Source of the DNA: an uncultured archaeon
Lineage (GTDB): Archaea; Asgardarchaeota; Thorarchaeia; Thorarchaeales; Thorarchaeaceae
Direction: 5' to 3'
Length of the DNA: 64,000 bases
NCBI GenBank assembly: GCA_964473825.1
Contig: CAYYQL010000006.1
Span: 47,367 to 111,366 of the forward strand
This document shows positions 13,713-42,525 of the stretch, piece after piece. The first letter of the stretch is position 1; each line of letters opens with the position of its first letter. The notes under the pieces are model-generated. The model searched no databases, was not told the DNA's origin, and was given only the letters and a program-made list of their open reading frames with translations. The position numbers and the translations under genes were made by a program.

Positions 13713-14456
13713 ACGTGTTGATTTCGAGTTCGTGAACAGATGGTTAAAAGAATTGTGGAGTGTATTGTGAGGGAATCAACGAATGCTCAGCTGCATTTCG
13801 CATAGTTCTCAACTGGGGCCACAACAGGTTTGTCATCTGATTTGAACTTCATCTCTATTGGAGGACCAAGGGGGAGAGAAGCCGATCCGATTCTGACAAC
13901 TGAAGCCGAGTGACAAGTACTGCAACCTGTGAAAGGAAGTGGTACAGTGCCAATCCCTCGTAATCATCTGGAGTGATCTCAGTCAAGTAGAGCAGCCTGT
14001 ACCGATGGTCACAGGCTCTGACCAAGAATCGGTTTCTTTCGAATCTATAGACCCAGGCAAGAGTGACCTCGTCCTATTGGACATATGGAGGGTCGAAGAA
14101 GCAGGCGGGAATGATTCGTCCATTCTTGATTATGCTTCTAACTGACTCTTTGACTGGCTCTGTATTGGTCCATGCGGCCCTGAAAGCAAAGATGAATGCT
14201 GAGAGGTTCCCATCGCTATGATTTCTGAGATAGAAGAGAAGGGAAATCACTCTGCGTGTGATGTAATGGTGGCCTGGGTGATCCGGCGGATTCTTCGGAA
14301 TCAGGCTGAACAAGTCAGATGCCGTGTCACTATCTCCATGGTAGATGCAAACTGTTTCAGGAAAATCATGATGGAAGCAACGGCGTAGATTCCATCCCAT
14401 TCATCATCCACGCTAGAACAACGTATTGAAAAAGCCTGAAGGTGCGGAGAGATACT

Positions 14457-30006: not shown

Positions 30007-30414
30007 ATGAAGAGAGTGTTGTTCCTCTGCACCGGTAATTCGGCACGCAGTCAGATGGCTGAGGCGCTTCTGCGCGAGCTGGGAAAGGAAGAGTACGAGG
30101 CATTCAGTGCCGGAACAGACATTCAGACAGAGGTCAATCCGTTCGCCATCCAGGTACTCAAAGAGATAGGCCTTAACACCGAGGGACTCCATCCAAAGAA
30201 ACTGGATCGCTTCAAGGGTGAAACATTCGACTTCGTCATTACTGTGTGCGATAATGCAAGACAGCAATGCCCCTTCTTTCCAGGAGCAAGAGAGATGCTC
30301 CACTGGTCACTTGAGGACCCCGCAGCATTCGAGGGGAGCCATGAAGAGATTCTCTTGATCTTTAGGGAGACCAGAGATGAGATTGAGAAGAGAATCAAGG
30401 GCACATTGCTCTAG
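30007..30414 (+). CDS. arsC: LMW-PTP-type arsenate reductase
   Basis: FLCTGNSARSQMAE, VCD..CP, HW.LEDP. Confidence 0.92.
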   Translation: MKRVLFLCTGNSARSQMAEALLRELGKEEYEAFSAGTDIQTEVNPFAIQVLKEIGLNTEGLHPKKLDRFKGETFDFVITVCDNARQQCPFFPGAREMLHWSLEDPAAFEGSHEEILLIFRETRDEIEKRIKGTLL

Positions 30415-32417
30415 TCTTCGACCCAATCAAACTTCCGCTGCAGGAGTTTGGTGTATATGTTTCTCCAGTCATAGTCGACCTTCTGACACCAGTTGTAGAC
30501 AATCTTCGGATGGATGTATGATTTGAGAGAAGTGCCAAGATTCCACGTTCGAGAATCTCGAGCCAGTGCCCAGTCAACCTCTATCTTCTTCTTGGCCAGT
30601 TCAGCCTTCTTGACACGTTCCTTCGCCCGTTCAACCATTTCCTTCCGTCGCTCGATTCGTTCGTTGCCATCTTCACGTGTGTCGATCAGAGACTGTTTCT
30701 TCTTCTCCAGTATCTCCTGACTTCTGCGATAGGTCTCTGTGTAGTCCTGCACACGCTTCTTTGCCTTTTCCCAACGCTCTCGCGTCCGGTCAATCTTGGC
30801 CTGTGCCTCTTCTAGGCGTTCTTGTTTGGTTCTCTTGCTCTTTCTTCGGCTCTCACGGATTGCGCGCTTCTCGGCACGGGCATTATCCCATGTCTCTTTT
30901 GCCTTGTCACGCTTCTCGCGATATTCCGCCATCTTCTCTTTGCGTTTCTCAACGACATCCTTTTGCTTCTCGATCAGCTCTCTCTTCTTCTTGAGTCGGT
31001 CCCGTTCTGTCTTACGCCGTTTCTTGAGGCGCTTCTTTTTGTCCGCAAGTGCTCTCTCTGCCTTGGCAATACGTTTGTCGGCCTTCTTCAGTCGTTCTTC
31101 AAAGCGTTTGTCGCGCCTTGGCCAACTCTTCGGCGCCTGTTTTGTATGATTCATAATGCGGGCTACTTCCAGATTGGCTCGTTTGGCTGCCGCCTTCTTG
31201 ATGAAATCCGGGTCCTTCTTTGATACTTTGCTCTCCTTGAGCTCCTCTCTCATAGTGACAGACGCATGGTACGTCCGGAACATCTTCGCGGTGAGATCTG
31301 GATACACCTCACTGAGGAACTGGTTCACATCGTGACTCCGGACCTTGGGAAAGATCTGGGCCATCTTCTTTGGGTCGGCCTTCGTCTTCTGGCGCTTTCG
31401 GGATTTGAATGAGGCCACCCAATCCTTGGCGTTATCGTACAGCTCACGAAAGACATTGTAGACATCATCAGGCGTTTTCAGTTCCTTATGCCAAGGAACA
31501 CTGTCTTTCCCCAAGAAGTCGAATATTATCAACCCGTTCTTGAAGGTGAGATGTTCCACACGTAAGGTTGTCGCGCCCACTGTGTCTGCCTCGTCCTTGT
31601 CCTTCTCATCTCCGACTCGCAGATTCAGACGATCAATCAGATAGCATGCAGCTGCGATCTCACGGACCTTTGCATCATCTGAGTGAAGGCCCCTCATGAT
31701 GTGCTCACGAACGTCTTCAATATGCTTCTCTAGCCTCAGAGCACTATCGAACTTCTCGGCCTCGCGTTCCTGTTTGATGGGCGTAGCATCATGGAGCCAG
31801 ATATACTTGTTCTTGCCGGTCAGCTCACTCTTCCATTTTGCGATCCAGAGACATTCAGGCTTCCAGACAATCTTCTTCCAGTTCCCCTCCGGACGAGGAG
31901 CATCGGGAGAGAGATTGAGTGTGATGTCCTCACATGTCGCAGCCTGCTTCCATCGGCCCCGAAGAGGATGCTCGCCTCTTCCCATGAATATCCCTGATGG
32001 CTCCGTCATGTAACTGGCTAGTTCCATCGTTTCTCCGTCAACCTCAGCATATCCGTACTCCTTCTTGAGGCGTTCCCGTTCAGCCTTTCGCTCCTCTCGC
32101 GCCCTCTTCTTCTCCTCTTTGGTCATGGCCTCCTTTGCTGCTCGCTCTTCTTCCACAAACTGTATCACTTGGGAGAAATCAACCTCGTCAAGAGAGAGCG
32201 GAGAGTTGAATCCGAGGACTTCACTTAAGTCAGTCATGAAGTTCTCAATGAACACGGGGTCTTCAACATAGGGCGTGCCCAGCTTCTTTACCCATGCCAC
32301 AGCCAACTCTTGCTGCCCCCTGGTCAGAACTATCTTTTCTCCTCGCACTTCAATTTCAAGACCTTCTGGCTCTGGTGCCTCTAAGATTAGTACTCCGTTG
32401 TGTTTCAGGCTGTCCAT
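30411..32417 (-). CDS. top1: Eukaryote-type DNA topoisomerase IB
   Basis: LKHNGV, GRGEHPLRG, LRVGDEKD, FLGKDS, KMFRTYHAS, NHTK, GTSLKSYIHP (catalytic Tyr); ATG at 32417 after GAGG. Confidence 0.95.
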   Translation of the reverse strand: MDSLKHNGVLILEAPEPEGLEIEVRGEKIVLTRGQQELAVAWVKKLGTPYVEDPVFIENFMTDLSEVLGFNSPLSLDEVDFSQVIQFVEEERAAKEAMTKEEKKRAREERKAERERLKKEYGYAEVDGETMELASYMTEPSGIFMGRGEHPLRGRWKQAATCEDITLNLSPDAPRPEGNWKKIVWKPECLWIAKWKSELTGKNKYIWLHDATPIKQEREAEKFDSALRLEKHIEDVREHIMRGLHSDDAKVREIAAACYLIDRLNLRVGDEKDKDEADTVGATTLRVEHLTFKNGLIIFDFLGKDSVPWHKELKTPDDVYNVFRELYDNAKDWVASFKSRKRQKTKADPKKMAQIFPKVRSHDVNQFLSEVYPDLTAKMFRTYHASVTMREELKESKVSKKDPDFIKKAAAKRANLEVARIMNHTKQAPKSWPRRDKRFEERLKKADKRIAKAERALADKKKRLKKRRKTERDRLKKKRELIEKQKDVVEKRKEKMAEYREKRDKAKETWDNARAEKRAIRESRRKSKRTKQERLEEAQAKIDRTRERWEKAKKRVQDYTETYRRSQEILEKKKQSLIDTREDGNERIERRKEMVERAKERVKKAELAKKKIEVDWALARDSRTWNLGTSLKSYIHPKIVYNWCQKVDYDWRNIYTKLLQRKFDWVED

Positions 32418-32580
32418 TAGTACATGAAACCTCATTCGATTCATTTCCAAGCTCAAGAATAGACGGGTGTAGTTCGCTTGTTCTTCTCGGCGAGAAGAGT
32501 GTGCCAAAAAAAAGATTGTGTTTAATTCATTGCAGAACTCGGATTCTTTGGCTAGAAGAAAAGCACAAAAAGGAGAGGAA

Positions 32581-32604
32581 GCCGAGTCTCGTGCAAGACT
32601 CGGC
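32581..32604 (-). terminator. GC-rich hairpin followed by a pyrimidine/T-rich tract on the minus strand
   Basis: Perfect 9-bp stem GCCGAGTCT/AGACTCGGC. Confidence 0.4.
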
Positions 32605-32949
32605 GGGGTTTTATTGGGCCTTTTGAGAAAAGGCGCTATTAGAACCAAGGCTCTATTAGATTCACCAAGGCTCTATCAGGACGGGGATTTCATCATCTGG
32701 ACCTGTCAAGTCATTTCACCTGAATATCATTCAGGGATGAGGGGTAGTGTACTGCACGTTCTGCTATCGAACGATTCGGAGAGAAAGGATAGGTTTATTC
32801 CAGAGAGAGCGGGGAGAGGGAGGCAAAGAGAGGGAGGAGATTATATCCGAACGCCCGGTACAGATTTGCCAAAAACAGCTAAGCAGACATAAGGAAAACC
32901 ATACGAGAGGAGAACTTCCGTGACATTGGAAGGAAATCAACCGAACTTC

Positions 32950-35900
32950 TCAGTGAAAGAAACCATCCAGAACCTCGAAGAACTCTTCCATGTTCACTAT
33001 GTGAAATCTAGTCCAGTTTCCCTCCTCCAATAGCTGCAGAATGCTATCTACTACCTCATCACCACTGACACCTCGTGGAAGCTCCCATGAAAGAGAGTCA
33101 AGAATCTCATCTGCCTCTCCAGCTCGTCTCACCTCCAAAGTGAGCGTCCTCCTCTGCAAGTCAGCCTCCAGTCGGGCGGGCATTTCTCCATCCCTCAGGC
33201 CCCGCTTCTCAAGTGCGCTTCTGATTCGAGTGCGCTGAGCTTCTGGATCATAGATCGATTCTTCCGGAATCTCTGACGTGATATTCCTCCAGAGATCATC
33301 TAAGACATCTGAGAGCTCTCGGACTACTTCCAATTCATAGGTGAATGAGCGGTTCTTCCAGTATTCACCCGTCAGACTAGATAGAGCTGTCCACTTGAGC
33401 CAGTCATCTCTGATGGTCAAAGATATCTCCCACCTCTGCTGCTCAGCTCGAAGATAGGTCCCAGTTTTCAGAGATGAAACCTTGAGTCCACTCTTCCGCA
33501 GAATCTTTCTAATGAGTGGGCTCTCGCGGAAGACCAAGCTCTCTCGCTGAAGGTCTGATGGAAGAATCACATTGACCGGGTGTATCTTGGAATCAAAGAC
33601 TATGCTCTCGGATCCGAGTCGGAGGATGATCTCTCTATCAGTGAAAAGGCCGCAGAAGACGTCCAACATTTCCTCATTCTCTCCCTCAAGAGTTGACTGC
33701 CAGCATCTGCCATGTTCCTTCCCCTCTCCCGAAGCCAGTGGACACTCGTTCTCGTTGTGGGATAGTCGAAAGCTGAGCTCCTTACCACAGGGGAGGGCGT
33801 GTAGGTCCGCTACTCTGGCCGGTAATCGGATATCGGCTGTTTCGGGAATGAAGGTTTCACTGACATTCGCCATGAGTGAGAGATCTCCATATTCGATGCC
33901 ACTAAACCGATCCCAGAAGACCATTTGCCCAGACGATAGTCTCACAGGTAGGCCCTTGCGAGTAAGGGTCAATGTATCGATGAGATTTGGCGTGAAGTGA
34001 TGCTCTATCATCTGCAGGGACTCATCATCTTCGTTCTTGATGTCCACTCTGCATCCCTCATCTGTCCATGACAGCTCCACTGACACATGTGTCTGCCCTT
34101 GAATCCGACTGAGGACACGTTCAATAGCCTTTTCGAGTCGATGAGATAGACTGGCTGGAACCAGGATATCAGTAGATCTTCGTGAGATTGGTTCTGAGAT
34201 AGGATCTTGTCTAGTGGCCCGGAGCATCGCGATTGAGCCCGTTGGTCTACCAGGGATGAAGTCGAACGAGCTCCTTAGAATCCAGTCTGACTCCTCTGTT
34301 TCTCTTGTCCAGAACAACCAATTCTCACTGTTTTGCTGGAGAGCCAGAGAGATGCGAGACCCTGTATCTATGAGTTCGCGGACACTGTCAGTGTGCTCTG
34401 AGATATCACTCTCAGCCCATTGCATCCCATCAGGACGGGTAGCCAGCCTTTTGTTGAAGAAGCCCACAAGGACTCTAGCAGGATTCCTCGGGTCTTCCAG
34501 TGCAACAATGCTGATTGGTTGATCAGGGTCCTCTGAGTAGACTATCTGACCAAAGCTGGCAATCCTGGGTTTGGGAGATTCAACAGTCTTAGGATAGGAG
34601 TCCCTCGCCTTGGACTTGTTCTGCTTGGGGCCACGATAGAGTCGGTGAGCATTAATCTGGCCGAGGAAGATATCGGCAAATGCCTTCTGCCTTTTTGTGC
34701 GAGGAGGACGATACATGAGCCTATGCAGTAGAGTGGGTACATCTGTCGGCTCACGGGAAAGAGAACGTCTTGTTATTGTCAGACCTTCCATAGACTCATG
34801 AAACTCATTGAAGAAGTCACGGAGAGCATCTGAGAAACTCACACCGGGTGAAACCTCTGTGTTGGGCCACAGGTCAGCCAACCAAGGAAGCAGGCTCATG
34901 GCCAGCGACCTGATCCGGTCTCGAACCCACGCCTTCGGTACAGCCTGTTCCTGTGGTTCAGGTATCTCTGTCTTGGCCCGATCATATTCTTCGGTTCTGA
35001 ACTTGGCAGTCCAGTGTCTGAGAACCGGGATGTGCAAAAGTGAGCTCTCAAACCCGAAGGACGACTGGGCCACCACGACTCTTATGTCATCAAACATGGG
35101 ACTTCGAGGAGCAGACTGACGGTGCCACGAGTCCGGGTCGATGACTCGTTCAGGCGCACATGGGAGGTTCCATATGATCTCATCCAGTTCACCCACAAGG
35201 GGAGAGGTATCACGCACAGGAATCAGGCAGTTGGTCGAGTAGATTGGAGTTCTTCTCTCATACTTCACCGGCCTGGAGAACCAGAGGATGGTTGTCTGTT
35301 CGTCATCGGATAATCGGTCTACCAGCTCCGCCAGCAAGCGGTTCATGCGGTCTCGATACAGTGAGGGCGTTGAGCTTTCAATCGCGTCCCACCCTGACAC
35401 AACTAGCAGACGGGGCTGTTTCACCTTGTCTTCCAACACCCGCGACAGGTCAATCATCGGGCCGCCATTGTAGAGATATGCCTGAATCTCAGCGAAGAGT
35501 GGTTTGAAATCTATGGAATGGAGGGTTTCCTGCACTGCATCTGACAGACCATTCTCGCCCGACCGCAGACGCGCCCTCAACCGAACCTCAGCAAGGGAGG
35601 TTGTGGAAAACTCGTCAGCCAAGTCAAGCCAGACAACACGGAGGTCAGGAGCGCCCTCTCGAAAGTCATGGATCATCTGCAGACCGTGATGATGTGCTGC
35701 AATCCAAGCAGCTGAGAGCCCTGCTGAGGTTGGAGATGCGGCGGCGATATAGAGAATGAAGCGTCGAGCACTGATGCCAGCACCGATCAGTGGGTCATAG
35801 GGCGGTTTCCATTCCGGTGGCACCGGCAACTCTCTGTAGTCTGGAGTGTGTTCTTGGTTGTGGACCACGAGGGCCATGCGCGGTCTCAGCCCATCCCTCG

Positions 35901-37533
35901 AAACCTCAAAGGCTATTCGTCGTCCAGACAGGTCTTCTGTCAGACATGACTCGAGCGCACTCAAGAGAAGCCCCCGTATCATTCGTCTGCTCTCTCTGCT
36001 CTCGTCGCTGGGGTCCATGACGAGTGTGGCACGAATCACCCTCGGAGGGCTCTCAAGATGAGCAATCGACCCAAAGACCTCAGACAGGGCCTCCGCATAA
36101 GCATCCAGCTGGGTAACGGTGTTCGGTTCAGGGGTGCCATCAACGACCTGTACCCACTCCTTAGGGCTGAGGGGCCGGAGAGAGAGCCTGAACCGTGGGA
36201 CCACCCGCTGGACCATCCCGTGCCGCTTCCGAGATGACGAAGGCCTTCGTTCAGGCTCCATATACCACTTGAACCCACAGCGGGTCTTGACCTCCACCAC
36301 CATCAGCGGACGCCAGAGGGTACGGAGACCTGTTGGTGCGGTCTCCCTTCTGAACACGACCAGGTCTGCCCTCCCCTTGCCCAGCGAGGTCCCCAGAGGT
36401 AGCTCTGCGACAATCCTGAGACCTCCTCCGGCCCCATCACGGTCATCGTCGCGGATGGCTCTCCGTACATCCAGAAACCGGTCGAATCTGTCCGTGATGC
36501 GCCTGTGGGCCTGGGCCCCCACCCTCTTCGTCCGTCGAACGGCACTCTGCCACAGGTGTTTCACATCATCACTGGTCAGGCGTGGTGCCTTCTTCTCGTG
36601 CTCGTCCGTCAGGACCTCGGACCCGCCTGACAGGATTCGGGCAAACTCCCCGGTCAGTACCGAATCCACCCCGGCCGCCTCCGCCTGCGCCAGCTGCTCC
36701 TCGAAGAAGTCCATGCTGAAACGGGGACGGGAATACGCCGCATGGGAGGACACGGTCTCAGGCTCACCCACCCGAACACCGTGGTGTGCCGCGATGTCAT
36801 CACGGATCTCCCGCAGCAGCCTGACCGTCCCATCCCTAAAGCCCGACGACCCATGCTCATGCTCGGTGTACAGGTGGTCGAGGTAGGTCCGTGCCCGCAG
36901 GATGAAGAGGTTGCTGTACCTCCGTGTGTCCCGCACCGACACATCGTGGATGTAGGCATCCGTGTTCAGGACCTGGATGTGCTGGCGCAGGGCGTCCATG
37001 AAGTCCAGCTCGGTGAGGAAGCGGTGGACAGGGGGATAGGCGGGGCAGCGTGCGTCGCCGGGATACCCCTGACCGATGTGCTCCCCGTTCTCGTTGAAGA
37101 GGGGCTGCGGCTGCCCCATGGGGTAGTAGATCGCCCCAGACTCCCGCAGAGCCGCGCCCCCAACGTTGAAGCGCTGGTTCAGGGGGCCCACATCCTCGTA
37201 CCACCGTCGCGCCCGCACGGTCTCGGTGCAGCCATAGAGGGCTGCGTTCTCCTCTAGCATGTCCAGACCATTCTTCCTGATGTTGTGCTCGGCCTTCATC
37301 ACGTGGCTGAAGTCCGGGGCACCCACCGCCCTCGAGATCTGGTAGGCCTCCGTGTACCGGTGCAGGATGTCACGGGAACTCTCGTACAGGTGGCGCGTGG
37401 TCGCGTTCCGAATCGTGCGCTGCAGGTACACAGCCGTGGACAGACCTGTCCTCATCGCCCGTGCCAGCACCCTGTTCGGATGCCTCGGGTACGGCCTCGC
37501 CCGCGGGCCACGGCTCCCTCTCATTCGCGCCAC
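32950..37533 (-). CDS. 1527-aa multidomain protein: PD-(D/E)XK (RecB-like) nuclease plus degenerate RecA/P-loop-like region
   Basis: E-LPL...GRADLVVF...VVEVKT...QLDAY; ASPTSAGLS and LLVVSGW at Walker A/B-like positions. Confidence 0.65.
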   Translation of the reverse strand: MARMRGSRGPRARPYPRHPNRVLARAMRTGLSTAVYLQRTIRNATTRHLYESSRDILHRYTEAYQISRAVGAPDFSHVMKAEHNIRKNGLDMLEENAALYGCTETVRARRWYEDVGPLNQRFNVGGAALRESGAIYYPMGQPQPLFNENGEHIGQGYPGDARCPAYPPVHRFLTELDFMDALRQHIQVLNTDAYIHDVSVRDTRRYSNLFILRARTYLDHLYTEHEHGSSGFRDGTVRLLREIRDDIAAHHGVRVGEPETVSSHAAYSRPRFSMDFFEEQLAQAEAAGVDSVLTGEFARILSGGSEVLTDEHEKKAPRLTSDDVKHLWQSAVRRTKRVGAQAHRRITDRFDRFLDVRRAIRDDDRDGAGGGLRIVAELPLGTSLGKGRADLVVFRRETAPTGLRTLWRPLMVVEVKTRCGFKWYMEPERRPSSSRKRHGMVQRVVPRFRLSLRPLSPKEWVQVVDGTPEPNTVTQLDAYAEALSEVFGSIAHLESPPRVIRATLVMDPSDESRESRRMIRGLLLSALESCLTEDLSGRRIAFEVSRDGLRPRMALVVHNQEHTPDYRELPVPPEWKPPYDPLIGAGISARRFILYIAAASPTSAGLSAAWIAAHHHGLQMIHDFREGAPDLRVVWLDLADEFSTTSLAEVRLRARLRSGENGLSDAVQETLHSIDFKPLFAEIQAYLYNGGPMIDLSRVLEDKVKQPRLLVVSGWDAIESSTPSLYRDRMNRLLAELVDRLSDDEQTTILWFSRPVKYERRTPIYSTNCLIPVRDTSPLVGELDEIIWNLPCAPERVIDPDSWHRQSAPRSPMFDDIRVVVAQSSFGFESSLLHIPVLRHWTAKFRTEEYDRAKTEIPEPQEQAVPKAWVRDRIRSLAMSLLPWLADLWPNTEVSPGVSFSDALRDFFNEFHESMEGLTITRRSLSREPTDVPTLLHRLMYRPPRTKRQKAFADIFLGQINAHRLYRGPKQNKSKARDSYPKTVESPKPRIASFGQIVYSEDPDQPISIVALEDPRNPARVLVGFFNKRLATRPDGMQWAESDISEHTDSVRELIDTGSRISLALQQNSENWLFWTRETEESDWILRSSFDFIPGRPTGSIAMLRATRQDPISEPISRRSTDILVPASLSHRLEKAIERVLSRIQGQTHVSVELSWTDEGCRVDIKNEDDESLQMIEHHFTPNLIDTLTLTRKGLPVRLSSGQMVFWDRFSGIEYGDLSLMANVSETFIPETADIRLPARVADLHALPCGKELSFRLSHNENECPLASGEGKEHGRCWQSTLEGENEEMLDVFCGLFTDREIILRLGSESIVFDSKIHPVNVILPSDLQRESLVFRESPLIRKILRKSGLKVSSLKTGTYLRAEQQRWEISLTIRDDWLKWTALSSLTGEYWKNRSFTYELEVVRELSDVLDDLWRNITSEIPEESIYDPEAQRTRIRSALEKRGLRDGEMPARLEADLQRRTLTLEVRRAGEADEILDSLSWELPRGVSGDEVVDSILQLLEEGNWTRFHIVNMEEFFEVLDGFFH

Positions 37534-37777
37534 TCTCTCTTCGTGCAGAAAACTATCGTATATGCTGTGACCATATCAAATGTTGGCTTAATATTTTTCG
37601 ATTGATATTTTCAGGCTTAGAGAACGAATAGACTAATTCAACTAGTTGTTTATTCAAATTGCTTCATAACTTTATATGCTTTCATACTTACTCATTGTAG
37701 GAGTTCAAAACGGCCCTGCAAGCACAAGGAGGCGAGTGAACTCCACTTAGTGGACTATCAGAACTTTATATGCGAAG

Positions 37778-39463
37778 ATGATGGCGATGGTCAAGTCCCA
37801 GGAACCAGTAATCACGGTCAAGATTCCCATCAACTGGGAGGAGATGACCGCGAGGGCACAGCAGCGACTGCGCCAGATGGTGGGACGTGACACCAGAGTC
37901 ATCCGAGCGTTCTTCGGGATCATCGAAGAGAACGAGGAACAGCTCTTGAGGGGGAGAAACAGGGACCGGATCGATGAGAACAAGCTGCATGCTATGACCA
38001 TGACTGCCCTGAAGGTGAGCAAGGGACAAGAAGAACGTCCTGAGGTAGAGCACGACCTGAAGGAGCAGTTCCCGAGAATATCAGCAAACGAGCTGAGTGA
38101 GTGCCGCAAGGTGGCTGTTGCGAATTACGAGAGTTACCTGGCCTTGAAGAGGAAGCGATGGCGGAAGGCGTCACGACCCAGTGAGGTGAATCGGAGCCAG
38201 CGGATACCGAGAAGAATCTTCATTCCGTATCGGGCTGAGCTGGTTCATCATAAGAGCACTGTGGCAACGTGGTGGCTGGAGCTGCGTGACTCCCTGGACT
38301 CGGTCCCTGAACGACGGCGGGTACATGATAGACTGACGGTGCCGCTGAAGACCTCCCCCTTTCACCTTGAGCAGCTGGACAGGGGAGATAAGAAGTCTGT
38401 GCAGGTGTTCACGGACAGACGGGGGAAGTGGTGGGCAGCGGTTGCTGTGCGATTGCCCGGGGTCGAGGCTGAGTCAGAATTGCCACCTGCAGTGTTGGGA
38501 ATCGATCTGGGAATCAACCGTGCGGTCTGTACGACGTTGGTGACGCCCTCAAAGGTCTCGGAGACCCGGTATTTTGTCCAAGAACATAAGGTCAGACTCA
38601 TGAAGAAGTATGATGACCGATTTGCCGACCTGCAGCGGGAACTTCAATTCTGTAAGGCTGACACGGAGCGGCACGATAACGTGGCTGCTAAACTCCGGAG
38701 CCTTCGCTCCAAGCGAGAACAGGTCTCCAAGGAGTACGACAGGCTAACCGTTAGCAGACTCATCTCGTATATCGAGGAGCTGTCACAGAAGTGGATGGTC
38801 TACGTGGCAATAGGCCGCGTCAAGGGCATCCGCAACACTGCTCGAAAGGGGAACTACAAGGGAAAGAAATTCAGAGGGATGGTGCATCGCTGGAGCTTCG
38901 GGCGGGTGACGCGCACGCTAAAACACGGGCTCGAGCAGCGAGGCTGGAGAACCGAGGGAAGGAAGAGCCGGTTTCATGTTGTCCCTGAGAACTGGACCTC
39001 CATCACCTGCTGGAAGTGCGGCCATCGAGGTGTTCGTCCCAAGCAGTCTCTGTTCATCTGCCATACTTGTGGGTTCAGAACGAACGCTGACAGAAACGGT
39101 TCCCTGAATATCGCGCGTCGATTGATCACGCTCATTCCGTCACTTACGAATGAGAACGGACTAGGGCGGTGGGCCACTCCTCAGCGGGAGCTCGGCTCAG
39201 CCCCGAAGGCTGTGAGGAAGACCCGTTCTTCTAAGCAGAAGTCCGAACTTGCTCGCAATGGCCCGGCATCAGGCCAGAGCAAGTCCGCGGTGGTTCGCCC
39301 CACTCAGATGAGTATCCTTGACTTTGGTGACGAAGTTGCGGGTGGCGATGATGATAGTGCCGTGGGAAGAGCTGTGGAAACACTCTCTGCTTCCAGCAAT
39401 GATGCGGCTGAGTTAAAGCAGGAGAAGGAAGCTCGGGTTACAGGAGGGACCGTGTCCCAATGA
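37778..39463 (+). CDS. tnpB: TnpB/Cas12f-like RuvC protein, copy 1, rearranged active site
   Basis: VLGIDLG (RuvC-I), VAIGRV (Gly at RuvC-II), VPENWTSITCWKCG..CHTCG zinc ribbon, NADRNGSLNI (RuvC-III). Confidence 0.85.
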   Translation: MMAMVKSQEPVITVKIPINWEEMTARAQQRLRQMVGRDTRVIRAFFGIIEENEEQLLRGRNRDRIDENKLHAMTMTALKVSKGQEERPEVEHDLKEQFPRISANELSECRKVAVANYESYLALKRKRWRKASRPSEVNRSQRIPRRIFIPYRAELVHHKSTVATWWLELRDSLDSVPERRRVHDRLTVPLKTSPFHLEQLDRGDKKSVQVFTDRRGKWWAAVAVRLPGVEAESELPPAVLGIDLGINRAVCTTLVTPSKVSETRYFVQEHKVRLMKKYDDRFADLQRELQFCKADTERHDNVAAKLRSLRSKREQVSKEYDRLTVSRLISYIEELSQKWMVYVAIGRVKGIRNTARKGNYKGKKFRGMVHRWSFGRVTRTLKHGLEQRGWRTEGRKSRFHVVPENWTSITCWKCGHRGVRPKQSLFICHTCGFRTNADRNGSLNIARRLITLIPSLTNENGLGRWATPQRELGSAPKAVRKTRSSKQKSELARNGPASGQSKSAVVRPTQMSILDFGDEVAGGDDDSAVGRAVETLSASSNDAAELKQEKEARVTGGTVSQ

Positions 39464-39568
39464 CGGTGGCCGAAGCTCTTGCTTGCTCTGGGGTGGCTCC
39501 CAGAAGTAGCGGTGACGCTGGGCAAGAGAAGAGCGGAACACAGAAGTCCAACCAGCGGAGTTCACTCA
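39305..39568 (+). ncRNA. Putative omegaRNA/reRNA scaffold of TnpB copy 1 (5' boundary approximate)
   Basis: Several stems covary with 41190-41453, including GNRA hairpin AGCG-GTGA-CGCT; overlaps the gene 3' end. Confidence 0.65.
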
Positions 39569-39683
39569 ACCCCAGCCATGGGAGTACACTTTGTCTTCTG
39601 AAGAGCAAAGCCATGCTTTTTCTCTTGCTGCAGTTGATCGATTCCGCAACTGGACTGTTAGTAAATAGGCTGAGGCGACGACG

Positions 39684-41795
39684 ATGGCGGCTGCTACGAA
39701 CCCTAGAATCGCGGTAAAGATACCGATTGCATGGGAGAGCATGTCGTCTTCTTCTCAGCAACACTTGGAACAGATAGTGGGTAGGGACTCCCGAGCAATC
39801 AAGAGGCTCCTGGGCATCATTGAACACAATGAGGATGATCTACTCTGTGGTAAGAGAAGGAACAAGGTGAGCCTGGGGCAACTCAACAGAATCACCATGA
39901 CTGCGACGAGGGGAAAGGCCAACCGGACCAAGGTCCCGCATGACCTGAAGGTTGACTTCCCGCGGGCCTGTGCCAGCGACCTCGCTGAGTGCGTCAAGAC
40001 AGCTGTCAGTCTGTACAACAGCTACCTTGCCCTCAGGCAGAAGAGGGGGTGGAGAGCGTCCCGACCCTGTAAGTCGAACTCCTCAGGACGTATCCCTCGA
40101 TGGATGTTTCATCCCAAGTCCTTCCGATTGGTTCAGCATGAGAACACGACTGCGCGGTGGTGGATGTCCCTGAGGGACTCGATGGACTCGAACCTTGAGG
40201 ACAGGTTGCGCCATGACAGGCTCATGATTCCCCTGAAGATGTCCCCCTTCCATGAGAACCAGCTCCAGCGCGGCGAGGTCAAGGCTGCACAGGTCTTCAC
40301 TGACCGGCTGGGAAAGTGGTGGGTCACGATATCCGTTCGTCTGGCTGAGACTCCAGAGGTCAGCGACGAGAACCCACCTGCTGTGCTAGGAATAGACCTG
40401 GGGATTGAGAAGGCTGTCTGTACCACTCTTGTCACCCCTGAGAAGGTGCGCGAAACGCGCTACTTCACACAGCAGAAGAAGGTCCGTCTTCTGAAGCAGT
40501 ATGATGACAGAGTCGCAAGTCTGCAGAGCGAGATGGACCTGAAAAAGGCTCGCGGCCAACGCTATGATGGTGTTGCAGAGAGACTGCGCTCTCTCAGAAC
40601 CAAGAGAGAGTCCGTGTCCAAGGAACACGATCGCGTCCTGCTCCGGGAACTGATCGACTACATCCTGGAGCTGAGTGAGAGGTATACACTCTTTGTCGCG
40701 ATTGGCAGGCTCAAGAACATCCGAAATAGTGCCAAACGCGGTGACTGGAAGGGCCGAAGGTTCAGGGGCATGGTCCATTCATGGGCCTTCGCTCGGATAA
40801 CCGAGGGACTTCGACGACAGCTCGGTCAGCTGGGTTGGCCTGTTCTGGGTAAGAAGTCGCGGGTCCACGCAGTCCCTGAGGCATGGACATCCATCATCTG
40901 TTGGAAGTGCGGGCAGAGAGGAACCAGACCCAGACAGAACCTCTTTGTCTGCTCCTGTGGAAACAAGTGCAATGCCGACAAGAACGGAGCCATCAACATC
41001 GCCGGACGCCTCATTACGCTCACAGAGTCACTCAATTCTGTGAGAGGACTAGGGAAGTGGGCTAGTGCAGCCTCTGCACGACGCACGCAACTGAAAGCCC
41101 GGAGGAAGACATCTTCCAAGGGGAGGTCCTCACTCTCAGGGCGCGATGCCTCATCTCATCGCGGAGAGTCCGCGGCTGTTCACTACGCTCAACCGAGCCT
41201 CCTCGACTTCGGTGACGAGGCTGAGGTGAGTGATGACGGTCCAGCCGTGGGAAGAAACGTGGAAAGACTCTCTACCGCTGGAACAGATGAACCAGCAGAA
41301 AAGGTAGGAGAAGGAAGCCAAGACAGGAAGAGAAGTGCCACTTCTATGATGCCTGACAAAGACTCCATCCCTCCCCGTCGCCAGACAGGGAATGGTGGCA
41401 ACACCGGGTGGAGAAAGGGTGGAACACGTAAGTCAACTAGAGAAGCCCACTCACTCATCAAGGGAGCCGCAACACCACTTCGAATGAATAGGAGAAGAGA
41501 AGCATGGATGGTGCGGCCACCGGGAATCGAACCCGGGCCCCATGCTTGGAAGGCATGGATCCTGACCACTAGACTATGGCCGCTTCACAGAGAGCTGACA
41601 GCCCATAGTCGATTTAAGGCTATTGCAGTGGCGCCGCGAGTTGACAGTCCGGGGAGTGGAAGGTGGATCCTTGCCTTGGAGGTCCGACACTCTTTCAGAC
41701 CATGCATCTGGCTGAAGGTCATACGAAGACCAGTTCATCATGTCGAGCAGAACAACAGATATCTGGAGGAGAAGCAGACAAGAGGAGCGCGCTGA
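39684..41795 (+). CDS. tnpB: TnpB/Cas12f-like RuvC protein, copy 2; homology to copy 1 ends near 41300 and the tail to 41795 follows a 1-nt insertion
   Basis: VLGIDLG, VAIGRL, VPEAWTSIICWKCG..CSCG, NADKNGAINI; collinear with copy 1. Confidence 0.82.
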   Translation: MAAATNPRIAVKIPIAWESMSSSSQQHLEQIVGRDSRAIKRLLGIIEHNEDDLLCGKRRNKVSLGQLNRITMTATRGKANRTKVPHDLKVDFPRACASDLAECVKTAVSLYNSYLALRQKRGWRASRPCKSNSSGRIPRWMFHPKSFRLVQHENTTARWWMSLRDSMDSNLEDRLRHDRLMIPLKMSPFHENQLQRGEVKAAQVFTDRLGKWWVTISVRLAETPEVSDENPPAVLGIDLGIEKAVCTTLVTPEKVRETRYFTQQKKVRLLKQYDDRVASLQSEMDLKKARGQRYDGVAERLRSLRTKRESVSKEHDRVLLRELIDYILELSERYTLFVAIGRLKNIRNSAKRGDWKGRRFRGMVHSWAFARITEGLRRQLGQLGWPVLGKKSRVHAVPEAWTSIICWKCGQRGTRPRQNLFVCSCGNKCNADKNGAINIAGRLITLTESLNSVRGLGKWASAASARRTQLKARRKTSSKGRSSLSGRDASSHRGESAAVHYAQPSLLDFGDEAEVSDDGPAVGRNVERLSTAGTDEPAEKVGEGSQDRKRSATSMMPDKDSIPPRRQTGNGGNTGWRKGGTRKSTREAHSLIKGAATPLRMNRRREAWMVRPPGIEPGPHAWKAWILTTRLWPLHRELTAHSRFKAIAVAPRVDSPGSGRWILALEVRHSFRPCIWLKVIRRPVHHVEQNNRYLEEKQTRGAR
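41190..41453 (+). ncRNA. Putative omegaRNA/reRNA scaffold of TnpB copy 2 (5' boundary approximate)
   Basis: Stems CTACC/GGTAG, AGAAGT/ACTTCT, CTCCATC/GGTGGAG and GGTG-GCAA-CACC match copy 1 positions with compensatory changes. Confidence 0.65.
41509..41583 (-). tRNA. tRNA-Gly(TCC), intronless
   Basis: GCGGCCATAGTCTAGTGGTCAGGATCCATGCCTTCCAAGCATGGGGCCCGGGTTCGATTCCCGGTGGCCGCACCA. Confidence 0.96.
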
Positions 41796-41999
41796 GTACA
41801 GCCGCAGGTACCGAACCACGAGATGATGGAGATGGGACGAGTATTCGAGTTTGACGAGGTGACAGATGCCGACTTGATTGTTGATGAATCTGGTCTTTCC
41901 CAAGTGGCAGAAAAGCGCCACTAGGAAGATTGAATATCTGGAACGGGATAGAGGGAGAGTAAGAACCGGTTTGGTAGAGGAGACAGCGGAGAGCTGAAC

Positions 42000-42525
42000 A
42001 TGGTCAACATAGATGTCCCTTATGTGCCTCAGAAGGGGAGCACAGACTGCGTAATTGCGTGTACCATGATGTTCCTGCGGTGGGGAAAAGACACATATGA
42101 TGACTTTGTGGAGTTCAAATAGGGAGAGCTCGAAACAATCATAGGAGTTGGAAAGGACGGGTCACGCCTATGTGACGTGCAGAAGCTGAACCGTGAAAAG
42201 CGGATAACAAAGCACCGCTGGAAGCCTCGGTTCTACTGCGGCCCGCCGACTTCCATACAATTCCTATGGGATGAACTACAGGATGGACGACCATTGATAG
42301 CATTCCTACTGGTCGAGAAGCCAGACGGAGTGGATGAAGCATGCAGTCGTTCTCACAGGTCGCTCCAAAGACAGAACGCAGGTCACATACTTGGACCCAC
42401 TGAATGAGAGTCCTGTGACAGAGACCACTGGCGGCTTCCTAGAGAAGTGGGAGAGCCTCTACAGATACTGTGTACATCTTGATATCACCGAGGAATATGT
42501 ATTGACTGACTTCATGGAGGAGTAA
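42000..42525 (+). pseudogene. C39-like cysteine peptidase pseudogene
   Basis: MVNIDVPYVPQ..DCVIAC, GRPLIA, HAVVLTG, YLDP; in-frame TAG at 42120 and a frameshift near 42333. Confidence 0.75.

Follow-up and report, generated by a model that had tools for sequence, protein, structure and literature searches.

Which kind of genetic unit joins the gene of a giant protein to genes of RNA-guided, TnpB-like nucleases at the 3' end of a tRNA-Gly(TCC) gene? The question is raised by a locus in a 64,000-nucleotide (nt) stretch of contig CAYYQL010000006.1 from an uncultured Asgard archaeon (assembly GCA_964473825.1, positions 47,367 to 111,366 of the forward strand), the whole of which is referred to as the window; one homolog of the giant protein, P0007, is named Candidatus Thorarchaeota in its source record. 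The block at approximately 32926–41508, between tRNA-Gly(TCC) and a gene of topoisomerase IB, is probably one resident copy of the Asgard aCas1–TnpB mobile element, in which the giant protein would act as mobility enzyme and the guide of TnpB would direct it to the tRNA trailer. The locus has the following layout, in window coordinates.

30411–32648, minus strand: eukaryote-type DNA topoisomerase IB (Pfam Topoisom_I_N, Topoisom_I, Topo_C_assoc), just left of the block
32926–32935, minus strand: decayed far copy of the tRNA-Gly 3'-half repeat, TTCCTTCCAA, from the anticodon loop, 15–24 nt past the stop of the giant gene
32950–37533, minus strand: giant aCas1-family gene, an intact open reading frame (ORF) of 1527 amino acids (aa)
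37534–37777, strandless: divergent promoter region, 244 bp, 36% guanine plus cytosine (G+C), 79% conserved among orthologs
37734–37756, within the promoter region: inverted-repeat arm that complements the TnpB1 RNA scaffold at its end, kept in orthologs
37778–39463, plus strand: TnpB1, 561 aa, matched by Pfam Cas12f1-like_TNB and PADLOC Cas12f models
39464–39568, plus strand: TnpB1 omegaRNA scaffold, a conserved non-coding tail ending in GTTCACTCA (39560–39568)
39684–41363, plus strand: TnpB2, an orphan paralog 55% identical to TnpB1, whose ORF reads on to 41795
41364–41453, plus strand: terminal stretch of the RNA scaffold of TnpB2, GGAACACGTAAGT...CCCACTCA, last nucleotide at 41453
41454–41508, plus strand: tRNA trailer, 55 nt between the TnpB2 scaffold end and the tRNA 3' end
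41509–41583, minus strand: insertion target, tRNA-Gly(TCC), with the 3' end toward the element

The giant gene and TnpB1 are positioned head to head, with TnpB2 and then tRNA-Gly(TCC) beyond them, and the G+C content is 55–63% over 35–42 kb compared to 47–51% around.

The association of the giant gene with TnpB, proposed in the first-pass annotation of this DNA, is borne out in all relatives sampled: where the upstream side was fetched, a divergent TnpB gene is present in 40 of 40 cases from more than 30 genomes, at about 250 bp from the giant gene, and the same distance is observed for both further copies in the window's own genome. The giant protein and TnpB are an obligate, co-inherited pair, associated beyond chance. 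The outcome that was to refute the pairing, a majority of homologs with no TnpB neighbor, is clearly not observed. The close homologs P0005, P0006 and P0007 (88, 78 and 68% identical to the giant protein) each have a divergent 560-aa TnpB approximately 255 bp upstream and tRNA-Gly(TCC) approximately 135 bp past the TnpB stop, in surroundings that are partly different. The two paralogs from the own genome, on contigs C2 and C26, are just 28–29% identical to the window copy, and each is paired with a divergent TnpB-like gene of about 720 aa retaining the canonical D-E-D site; one of them adjoins tRNA-Lys. An exhaustive HMMER search yields 151 cluster representatives of the giant family, mostly of 1400–1900 aa, and among 400 genomes of the phylum searched the family is confined to two taxonomic families: the window's own, with 51 of 85 genomes, and a second, with 3 of 12. 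Genomes usually have at least two copies, this being a lower bound, as only two candidates were scored per genome. The own genome also contains a degenerate pair at C17:5973–7206 (L008, L013, L020), where a TnpB fragment (aa 388–539, one stop) is found next to a giant-gene fragment (aa 1165–1345, one stop).

The giant protein is recognized neither by Pfam and PADLOC models nor by PDB sequence or profile searches, and its domains have been assigned using AlphaFold2 models built from family alignments (predicted local distance difference test, pLDDT, 90 and predicted template modeling score, pTM, 0.90 for aa 1–860; pLDDT 85 for aa 861–1527). In addition to Foldseek, an independent VIA search covered 48,161 representative chains. 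The following domains are predicted.

36814–37515, minus strand: Cas1-like catalytic (alpha-helical) domain, aa 7–240
36004–36576, minus strand: PD-(D/E)XK nuclease domain, aa ~320–510
35020–35772, minus strand: RecA/RAD51/KaiC-like alpha/beta domain, aa 588–838
32953–34953, minus strand: C-terminal region, beta-rich, 667 aa

Region 7–240 matches the Cas1 catalytic domain 8flj_A with VIA Z 13.5, root-mean-square deviation 3.4 Å and 178 aligned residues. For aa 10–240, all matches to that part among the top 50 are Cas1 or casposase (ten entries, Z 9.4–13.5), the best values for Cas1-type chains being 13.5, 12.2, 11.6, 11.5 and 11.0, the last one obtained for casposase 6opm_A. Residues E82, R107, N119, H170, D177, D180 and R183 are conserved across the family, with conservation of E82, H170, D177 and D180 reaching 90–100%. 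Judged by these models, the N-terminus of the giant protein has the fold of a Cas1-type integrase domain, with the candidate catalytic E, H and DxxD kept. The first-pass annotation overlooked these 240 N-terminal residues, the most informative part of the protein; the set of features it did report and the motif positions hold (GRADLVV at aa 387, VVEVKT at 412, QLDAY at 475, ASPTSAGLS at 599, LLVVSGW at 709, and a Cys/His cluster at 1259–1278).

The RecB/Cas4-like motif set reported at first is invariant, as D390, D/E414, K416, Q475 and Y479 are present in all approximately 90 aligned members; the domain also carries H343 and E377, likewise invariant, with the spacing E414-x-K416 and Q475-xxx-Y479, and its predicted alpha-beta-beta-beta-alpha-beta topology fits the PD-(D/E)XK core. 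The atlas leads for this domain are UL24, PDDEXK_1 and PDDEXK_3 at 0.85–0.89, all below 0.9; the domain is not among the top 50 of the multi-domain fold searches, and its hhalign comparison with Cas4 is not significant (P 0.07). Direct reading of aa 300–560 finds only C419 and C530, so the Cas4-type four-cysteine iron–sulfur cluster is absent.

Region 588–838 is RecA-like, with Foldseek E 8e-5 to RAD51 paralogs and VIA Z 12–13 over approximately 190 residues. The Walker A pattern GxxxxGK[ST] is absent, the site reading ASPTSAGLSAAW and the family consensus being S..SSG.SAAW, with no lysine; a Walker B-like aspartate, D637, and G714 are conserved. The modeled structure has the RecA core fold without the P-loop lysine, and because this lysine is missing, the earlier label of a degenerate ATPase is right. 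The large C-terminal part, annotated as unrecognized sequence with a C..H..C cluster, indeed has no significant fold match over its 667 aa (best Foldseek hit 1.5e-3 at prob 0.28, VIA wide Z ≤5.6), and the conserved motif here is H1259-x4-C1264 ... H1274-x2-C1277-W (33700–33759). The G+C content shifts inside the giant ORF, from about 51% in the C-terminal third (33000–35000) to 55–63% in the N-terminal two thirds and both TnpB genes (35000–42000).

The position of the block has been analyzed by comparison with related genomes. Of 86 genomes of the family, 82 yielded the position of tRNA-Gly(TCC), and the DNA on its 3' side was retrieved for 18 genomes showing no partial tRNA copy. TnpB is absent from 17 of these 18 flanks, and in at least 11 of the 18 relatives, from five genera, tRNA-Gly is directly followed by topoisomerase IB in the same orientation as in the window. 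As relatives have this empty junction, the 8.6 kb in the window (6.7 kb in ortholog L001) represent an insertion at the ancestral tRNA-Gly/topoisomerase IB junction, which agrees with the initial anchoring of the block at the tRNA-Gly 3' end. DNA comparison with the orthologous loci reveals one conserved block, 32926–39568, followed by the tRNA. The topoisomerase IB itself, a conserved neighbor of tRNA-Gly across the archaeal family, has a long Lys/Glu-rich insert before the C-terminal domain.

In the orthologs, the element is flanked by repeats of the tRNA 3' half. In L001, a 45-nt tRNA copy from the anticodon loop to CCA is observed 17 nt past the giant gene stop (L001:14592–14636), and in L003, a 43-nt copy follows the giant gene (13813–13855), with a second copy after the neighboring SLFN/AlbA_2 gene; in both loci, the 6.7 kb between the repeats contain TnpB and the giant gene only. 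The tRNA repeat of L004 is found 6.6 kb further on and comprises 71 nt with 63/71 identity, from the anticodon loop through CCA plus 25 nt of the trailer; the near copy is immediately followed by TGAGTGAAC, the reverse complement of the scaffold end. The flanking repeat of L110 is 60 nt long. The far repeat is reduced in the window to its 10-nt remnant, and because of this decay the window copy is probably no longer mobile. No excision joint is seen in contigs of four mat metagenomes. The C2 paralog is followed by no partial tRNA-Lys copy.

In this family, tRNA-Gly(TCC) is a hot spot of insertion: many genomes have partial copies, beginning at tRNA positions ~28–35 or ~45–47, at a distance of 1.3–7.2 kb from the intact gene, and a 981-aa SLFN/AlbA_2 gene at L003:13869–16967 is bracketed by partial tRNA-Gly copies.

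Both TnpB-like genes match Pfam Cas12f1-like_TNB (E 1e-11 and 1e-10) and several PADLOC Cas12f models. In TnpB1, RuvC-I D243, RuvC-III D438 and the CxxC...CxxC zinc finger are present, while the canonical glutamate of RuvC-II is replaced by Gly346 (VAIG); by sequence, E404 is a possible candidate for its substitute. A glycine at RuvC-II combined with a putatively relocated glutamate resembles the "rearranged" groups of the published TnpB survey (Altae-Tran et al., 2023; PMC10691335). Past the TnpB1 stop, conservation extends over approximately 105 nt, through GTTCACTCA, and breaks off there; the 10–16 nt immediately before this motif vary between copies, and homology with orthologs that have a single TnpB ends exactly at 39568.

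TnpB2 lacks its usual stop: the ORF extends across the RNA scaffold of TnpB2 itself and across the antisense tRNA as far as 41795, yielding 703 aa, of which only the first ~560 aa are TnpB. It has neither a giant partner nor an upstream promoter region of its own and is situated between the end of scaffold 1 and the trailer. Its relatives elsewhere are paired with giant genes of their own, one of them also at tRNA-Gly (L110), and in a related strain from the same microbial mats (contigs from the four mat metagenomes) a TnpB1-type scaffold is joined to the tRNA with no TnpB2. We read TnpB2 as what is left of a second, related element located at this tRNA.

The disordered C-termini of both TnpBs keep a Q..S(I/L)LDFGD motif (39310–39330, aa 512; 41196–41216, aa 505); the DNA here doubles as template of the RNA scaffold, and TnpBs of the 720-aa class lack a tail of this type. 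Three near-identical stand-alone copies of the TnpB 3' end with the scaffold are present in the own genome, at C19:4924–5247 (L015), C102:1534–1845 (L016) and C12:26568–26873 (L017), each with a 108-aa ORF, an inverted TCTGACAGA upstream and, past the scaffold end, 20 nt that are identical in all three, ATCTGTCAGARACAGTTTAT. One of them directly follows the ordinary cas1-cas2-cas4 genes of this genome, and arrays resembling CRISPR are absent next to all three. These copies may be miniature non-autonomous derivatives or stand-alone guide-RNA genes. In L120 (G341:C31), the interval from tRNA-Gly to topoisomerase IB contains, 22 nt after the tRNA, a scaffold end TGAGTGAACC...GACTTCTGTGTTCC with no TnpB gene detected; it is either a decayed element or a guide-RNA-only remnant.

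What would the RNA read after the scaffold? The trailer between the scaffold end and the tRNA is 22–55 nt long across copies and resembles the trailer of the empty site L112. As it is duplicated together with the tRNA 3' half in L004, the "spacer" between the scaffold end and the tRNA is the native tRNA trailer. When searched in the own genome, the sequences after both scaffolds produce matches at chance level only, save one: GCAACACCACTTCGAAT, an exact 17-nt match in the stretch after the TnpB2 scaffold (window 41468–41484, identical to C3:60071–60087, E 0.004 for the genome), which could be chance or a second target.

The nature of this stretch bears on anti-virus defence, where TnpB would find foreign DNA by RNA and the giant nuclease would destroy it. 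In line with such a function, the site of the nuclease does not vary, the family evolves fast and is both multi-copy and lineage-specific, and some copies have defence-like neighbors (SLFN/AlbA_2, Mre11-Rad50-like genes). We nevertheless consider it very improbable: the post-scaffold sequence is host tRNA trailer rather than a variable spacer of foreign origin, no array is present, the giant protein has no PADLOC match, and the unit itself behaves as an insertion. Out of the first-pass suggestion of a defence, recombination or mobility module, mobility fits the empty site in relatives and the tRNA-derived flanking repeats, while defence is disfavored; the conjecture made there, that TnpB supplies targeting for the large nuclease, is not supported by the observations described here.

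For the aCas1–TnpB mobile element, the following sequence of events can be proposed. The giant protein would move the element through its Cas1-like domain, which would join the element ends to staggered positions of the target, so that the intervening stretch is duplicated, as by Cas1 at the CRISPR repeat; the nuclease and RecA-like domains might assist in end processing or target capture. The TnpB RNA would extend beyond the element, across the trailer and into the antisense 3' end of the tRNA, with the trailer as the guide part, and TnpB is therefore proposed to be programmed against the unoccupied tRNA-Gly site. By analogy with IS200/IS605, TnpB may cut this unoccupied site, and the element would home into it or be retained there. 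A bolder version, an RNA-guided, Cas1-driven transposon, is possible, and we put it forward tentatively, as rather less likely than not: the guide would be templated by the duplicated trailer, TnpB would mark or cut the empty tRNA-Gly site, and the Cas1-like domain would insert with a stagger of ~70–80 bp, duplicating the tRNA 3' half and the trailer. Such a transposon would be a living analogue of the first cooperation of TnpB with a Cas1 integrase, before type V CRISPR arrays, and the link between guide and insertion site, if true, would constitute a second, independent case of RNA-guided transposition besides CRISPR-associated Tn7-like transposons. The window copy and its orthologs form a clean test case, with a known target, empty sites, a readable duplication and a scaffold ending exactly at the duplicated segment, and as all of these are known, the proposed link is directly testable.

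A number of observations weigh against a Cas1-driven mobile element. With respect to the integrase domain, hhalign aligns it weakly (P 0.009, Prob 4%) with a set of 30 Asgard Cas1 proteins; nevertheless, the alignment places E82, R...GPLN and LDFxDxxR on the Cas1 motifs E..A..Y, RRPP.D..N and LDL.E.FR, so that E82, D177 and D180 align with Cas1 motifs and the histidine is offset. At E up to 0.1, the giant protein has no match to the Pfam Cas1 model (PF01867); it lacks the N-terminal beta domain of Cas1 (matches start at about Cas1 residue 100, the protein beginning at the helical domain), and no Cas2-like ORF is present within the block. With respect to the repeats, a simple search within 450/700 nt of the two ends found no direct repeats around 17 other modules, the only match of 13 nt, in L099, possibly being due to chance. 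Smaller inserts at the same tRNA have such repeats and lack the aCas1 gene (the SLFN cassette of L003 and many partial copies), and repeats starting in the tRNA anticodon loop are also a signature of tyrosine integrases.

The latter observations lead to a different explanation, in which a conventional integrative element carries the pair as cargo: a tyrosine integrase that either acts in trans or has been lost in the meantime inserts at tRNA-Gly, and the giant protein and TnpB have another function, such as maintenance or inter-element conflict. Repeats running from the anticodon loop or the T arm to CCA are classic attachment sites of these integrases, the other repeat-bounded inserts at this tRNA, of 1.3–3.5 kb, are too small for an aCas1 gene, and in L004 the repeats enclose 6.6 kb of additional genes. 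This explanation seems quite unlikely, given that TnpB and the giant gene are alone between the repeats of L001 and L003, that no integrase-family match is found beside any module examined, and that the putative catalytic residues of the Cas1-like domain are conserved family-wide.

One more point against the mobile element is that movement must be rare or ancient, because copies within the genome are 28% identical and orthologs occupy the same site in several genera. Judging by the ratio of nonsynonymous to synonymous substitution rates (dN/dS), purifying selection acts on the giant gene and on TnpB1, the main pair, with values of 0.21 versus L001 and 0.18 versus L003 for the giant gene, and 0.09 and 0.15, respectively, for TnpB1. 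Such values are in favor of the mobile element, and ratios of 0.1–0.2 also fit a domesticated host module, that is, a once-mobile pair now fixed and inherited vertically to the benefit of the host, e.g., for RNA-guided regulation or repair near tRNA genes. Domestication would further account for the tRNA site shared by orthologs that are 68–88% identical and come from at least four genomes, for the decayed far repeat of the window, for the low identity of the own-genome paralogs with no near-identical copies among them, and for the inverted scaffold-end copy in the promoter region between the divergent genes, possibly a target of self-regulation. Still, we regard it as unlikely, since the site is empty in most relatives, remnants of older copies are found beside intact ones (the far flank of L001, L120, the orphan TnpB2), contigs often break at the TnpB gene, and the distribution within the family is patchy. 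We thus retain the aCas1–TnpB mobile element as the probable identity of the block.

How does this element relate to systems already described? The aCas1 variants reportedly come from Makarova et al. (2020, CRISPR J). The first-pass annotation took the locus for a candidate new system, and this claim has to be given up. TnpBs have been described in association with Asgard Cas1 variants (groups Cas1H-Asgard-1 and -2), aCas1 is proposed to be a transposase as the locus is often flanked by repeats, and tnpB is followed by a variable stretch and then the conserved GTTCACTCA (Altae-Tran et al., 2023, PNAS; PMC10691335). As the same association and the same motif have been published there, the window element is a member of this known kind. 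It shares with these loci the Asgard host, a very diverged Cas1 homolog next to TnpB, the repeat flanks (here in the orthologs, the window itself keeping a 10-nt remnant of the far repeat), GTTCACTCA downstream of tnpB and a giant protein as the proposed transposase, and we observe no essential difference from them. Features that we did not find in the consulted part of that paper are the insertion between tRNA-Gly and topoisomerase IB with its empty sites, the make-up of the repeat, in which the tRNA 3' half plus trailer borders directly on the scaffold end, the presence of a RecA-like domain, and a second TnpB that is an orphan.

Among other mobile elements, casposons share a Cas1-fold integrase as the likely mobility enzyme, in agreement with the match to the casposase at Z 11.0. 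Casposons are often found at tRNA 3' ends and often have a PD-(D/E)XK nuclease. The window element differs from them in having TnpB with a guide RNA and no family B DNA polymerase, in a Cas1-like domain that lacks the N-terminal beta domain and is fused to the nuclease, the RecA-like domain and 690 further residues, and in the flanking repeat, which is ~45–75 nt here compared to 14–15 bp.

With IS200/IS605 and IS607 elements it shares a TnpB RNA scaffold that overlaps the 3' end and stops at the element boundary, a guide that would be read from the flanking target DNA, and the presumed role of TnpB in cutting the empty site. In contrast to these elements, it has no Y1 or serine TnpA, the partner being a divergently transcribed Cas1-like fusion of about 1500 aa; elements of the window type also have long direct repeats and an inverted scaffold-end copy upstream of tnpB, and the RuvC-II of the window copy appears to be rearranged.

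Finally, compared to type V CRISPR-Cas adaptation modules, in which Cas12 occurs with Cas1, Cas2 and Cas4 and which include Cas4-Cas1 fusions, the window element has no CRISPR array and no Cas2, its Cas1-like domain precedes the nuclease, and the nuclease has no four-cysteine cluster of the Cas4 type; the ordinary cas1-cas2-cas4 locus of this genome is separate, on another contig. What is shared with these modules is the combination of a nuclease of the TnpB/Cas12 family, a Cas1-fold domain and a RecB/Cas4-like nuclease. In the aCas1–TnpB elements, a Cas1-type integrase is joined by a TnpB nuclease and its guide RNA, so that the ancestors of the two halves of type V CRISPR-Cas are found side by side.

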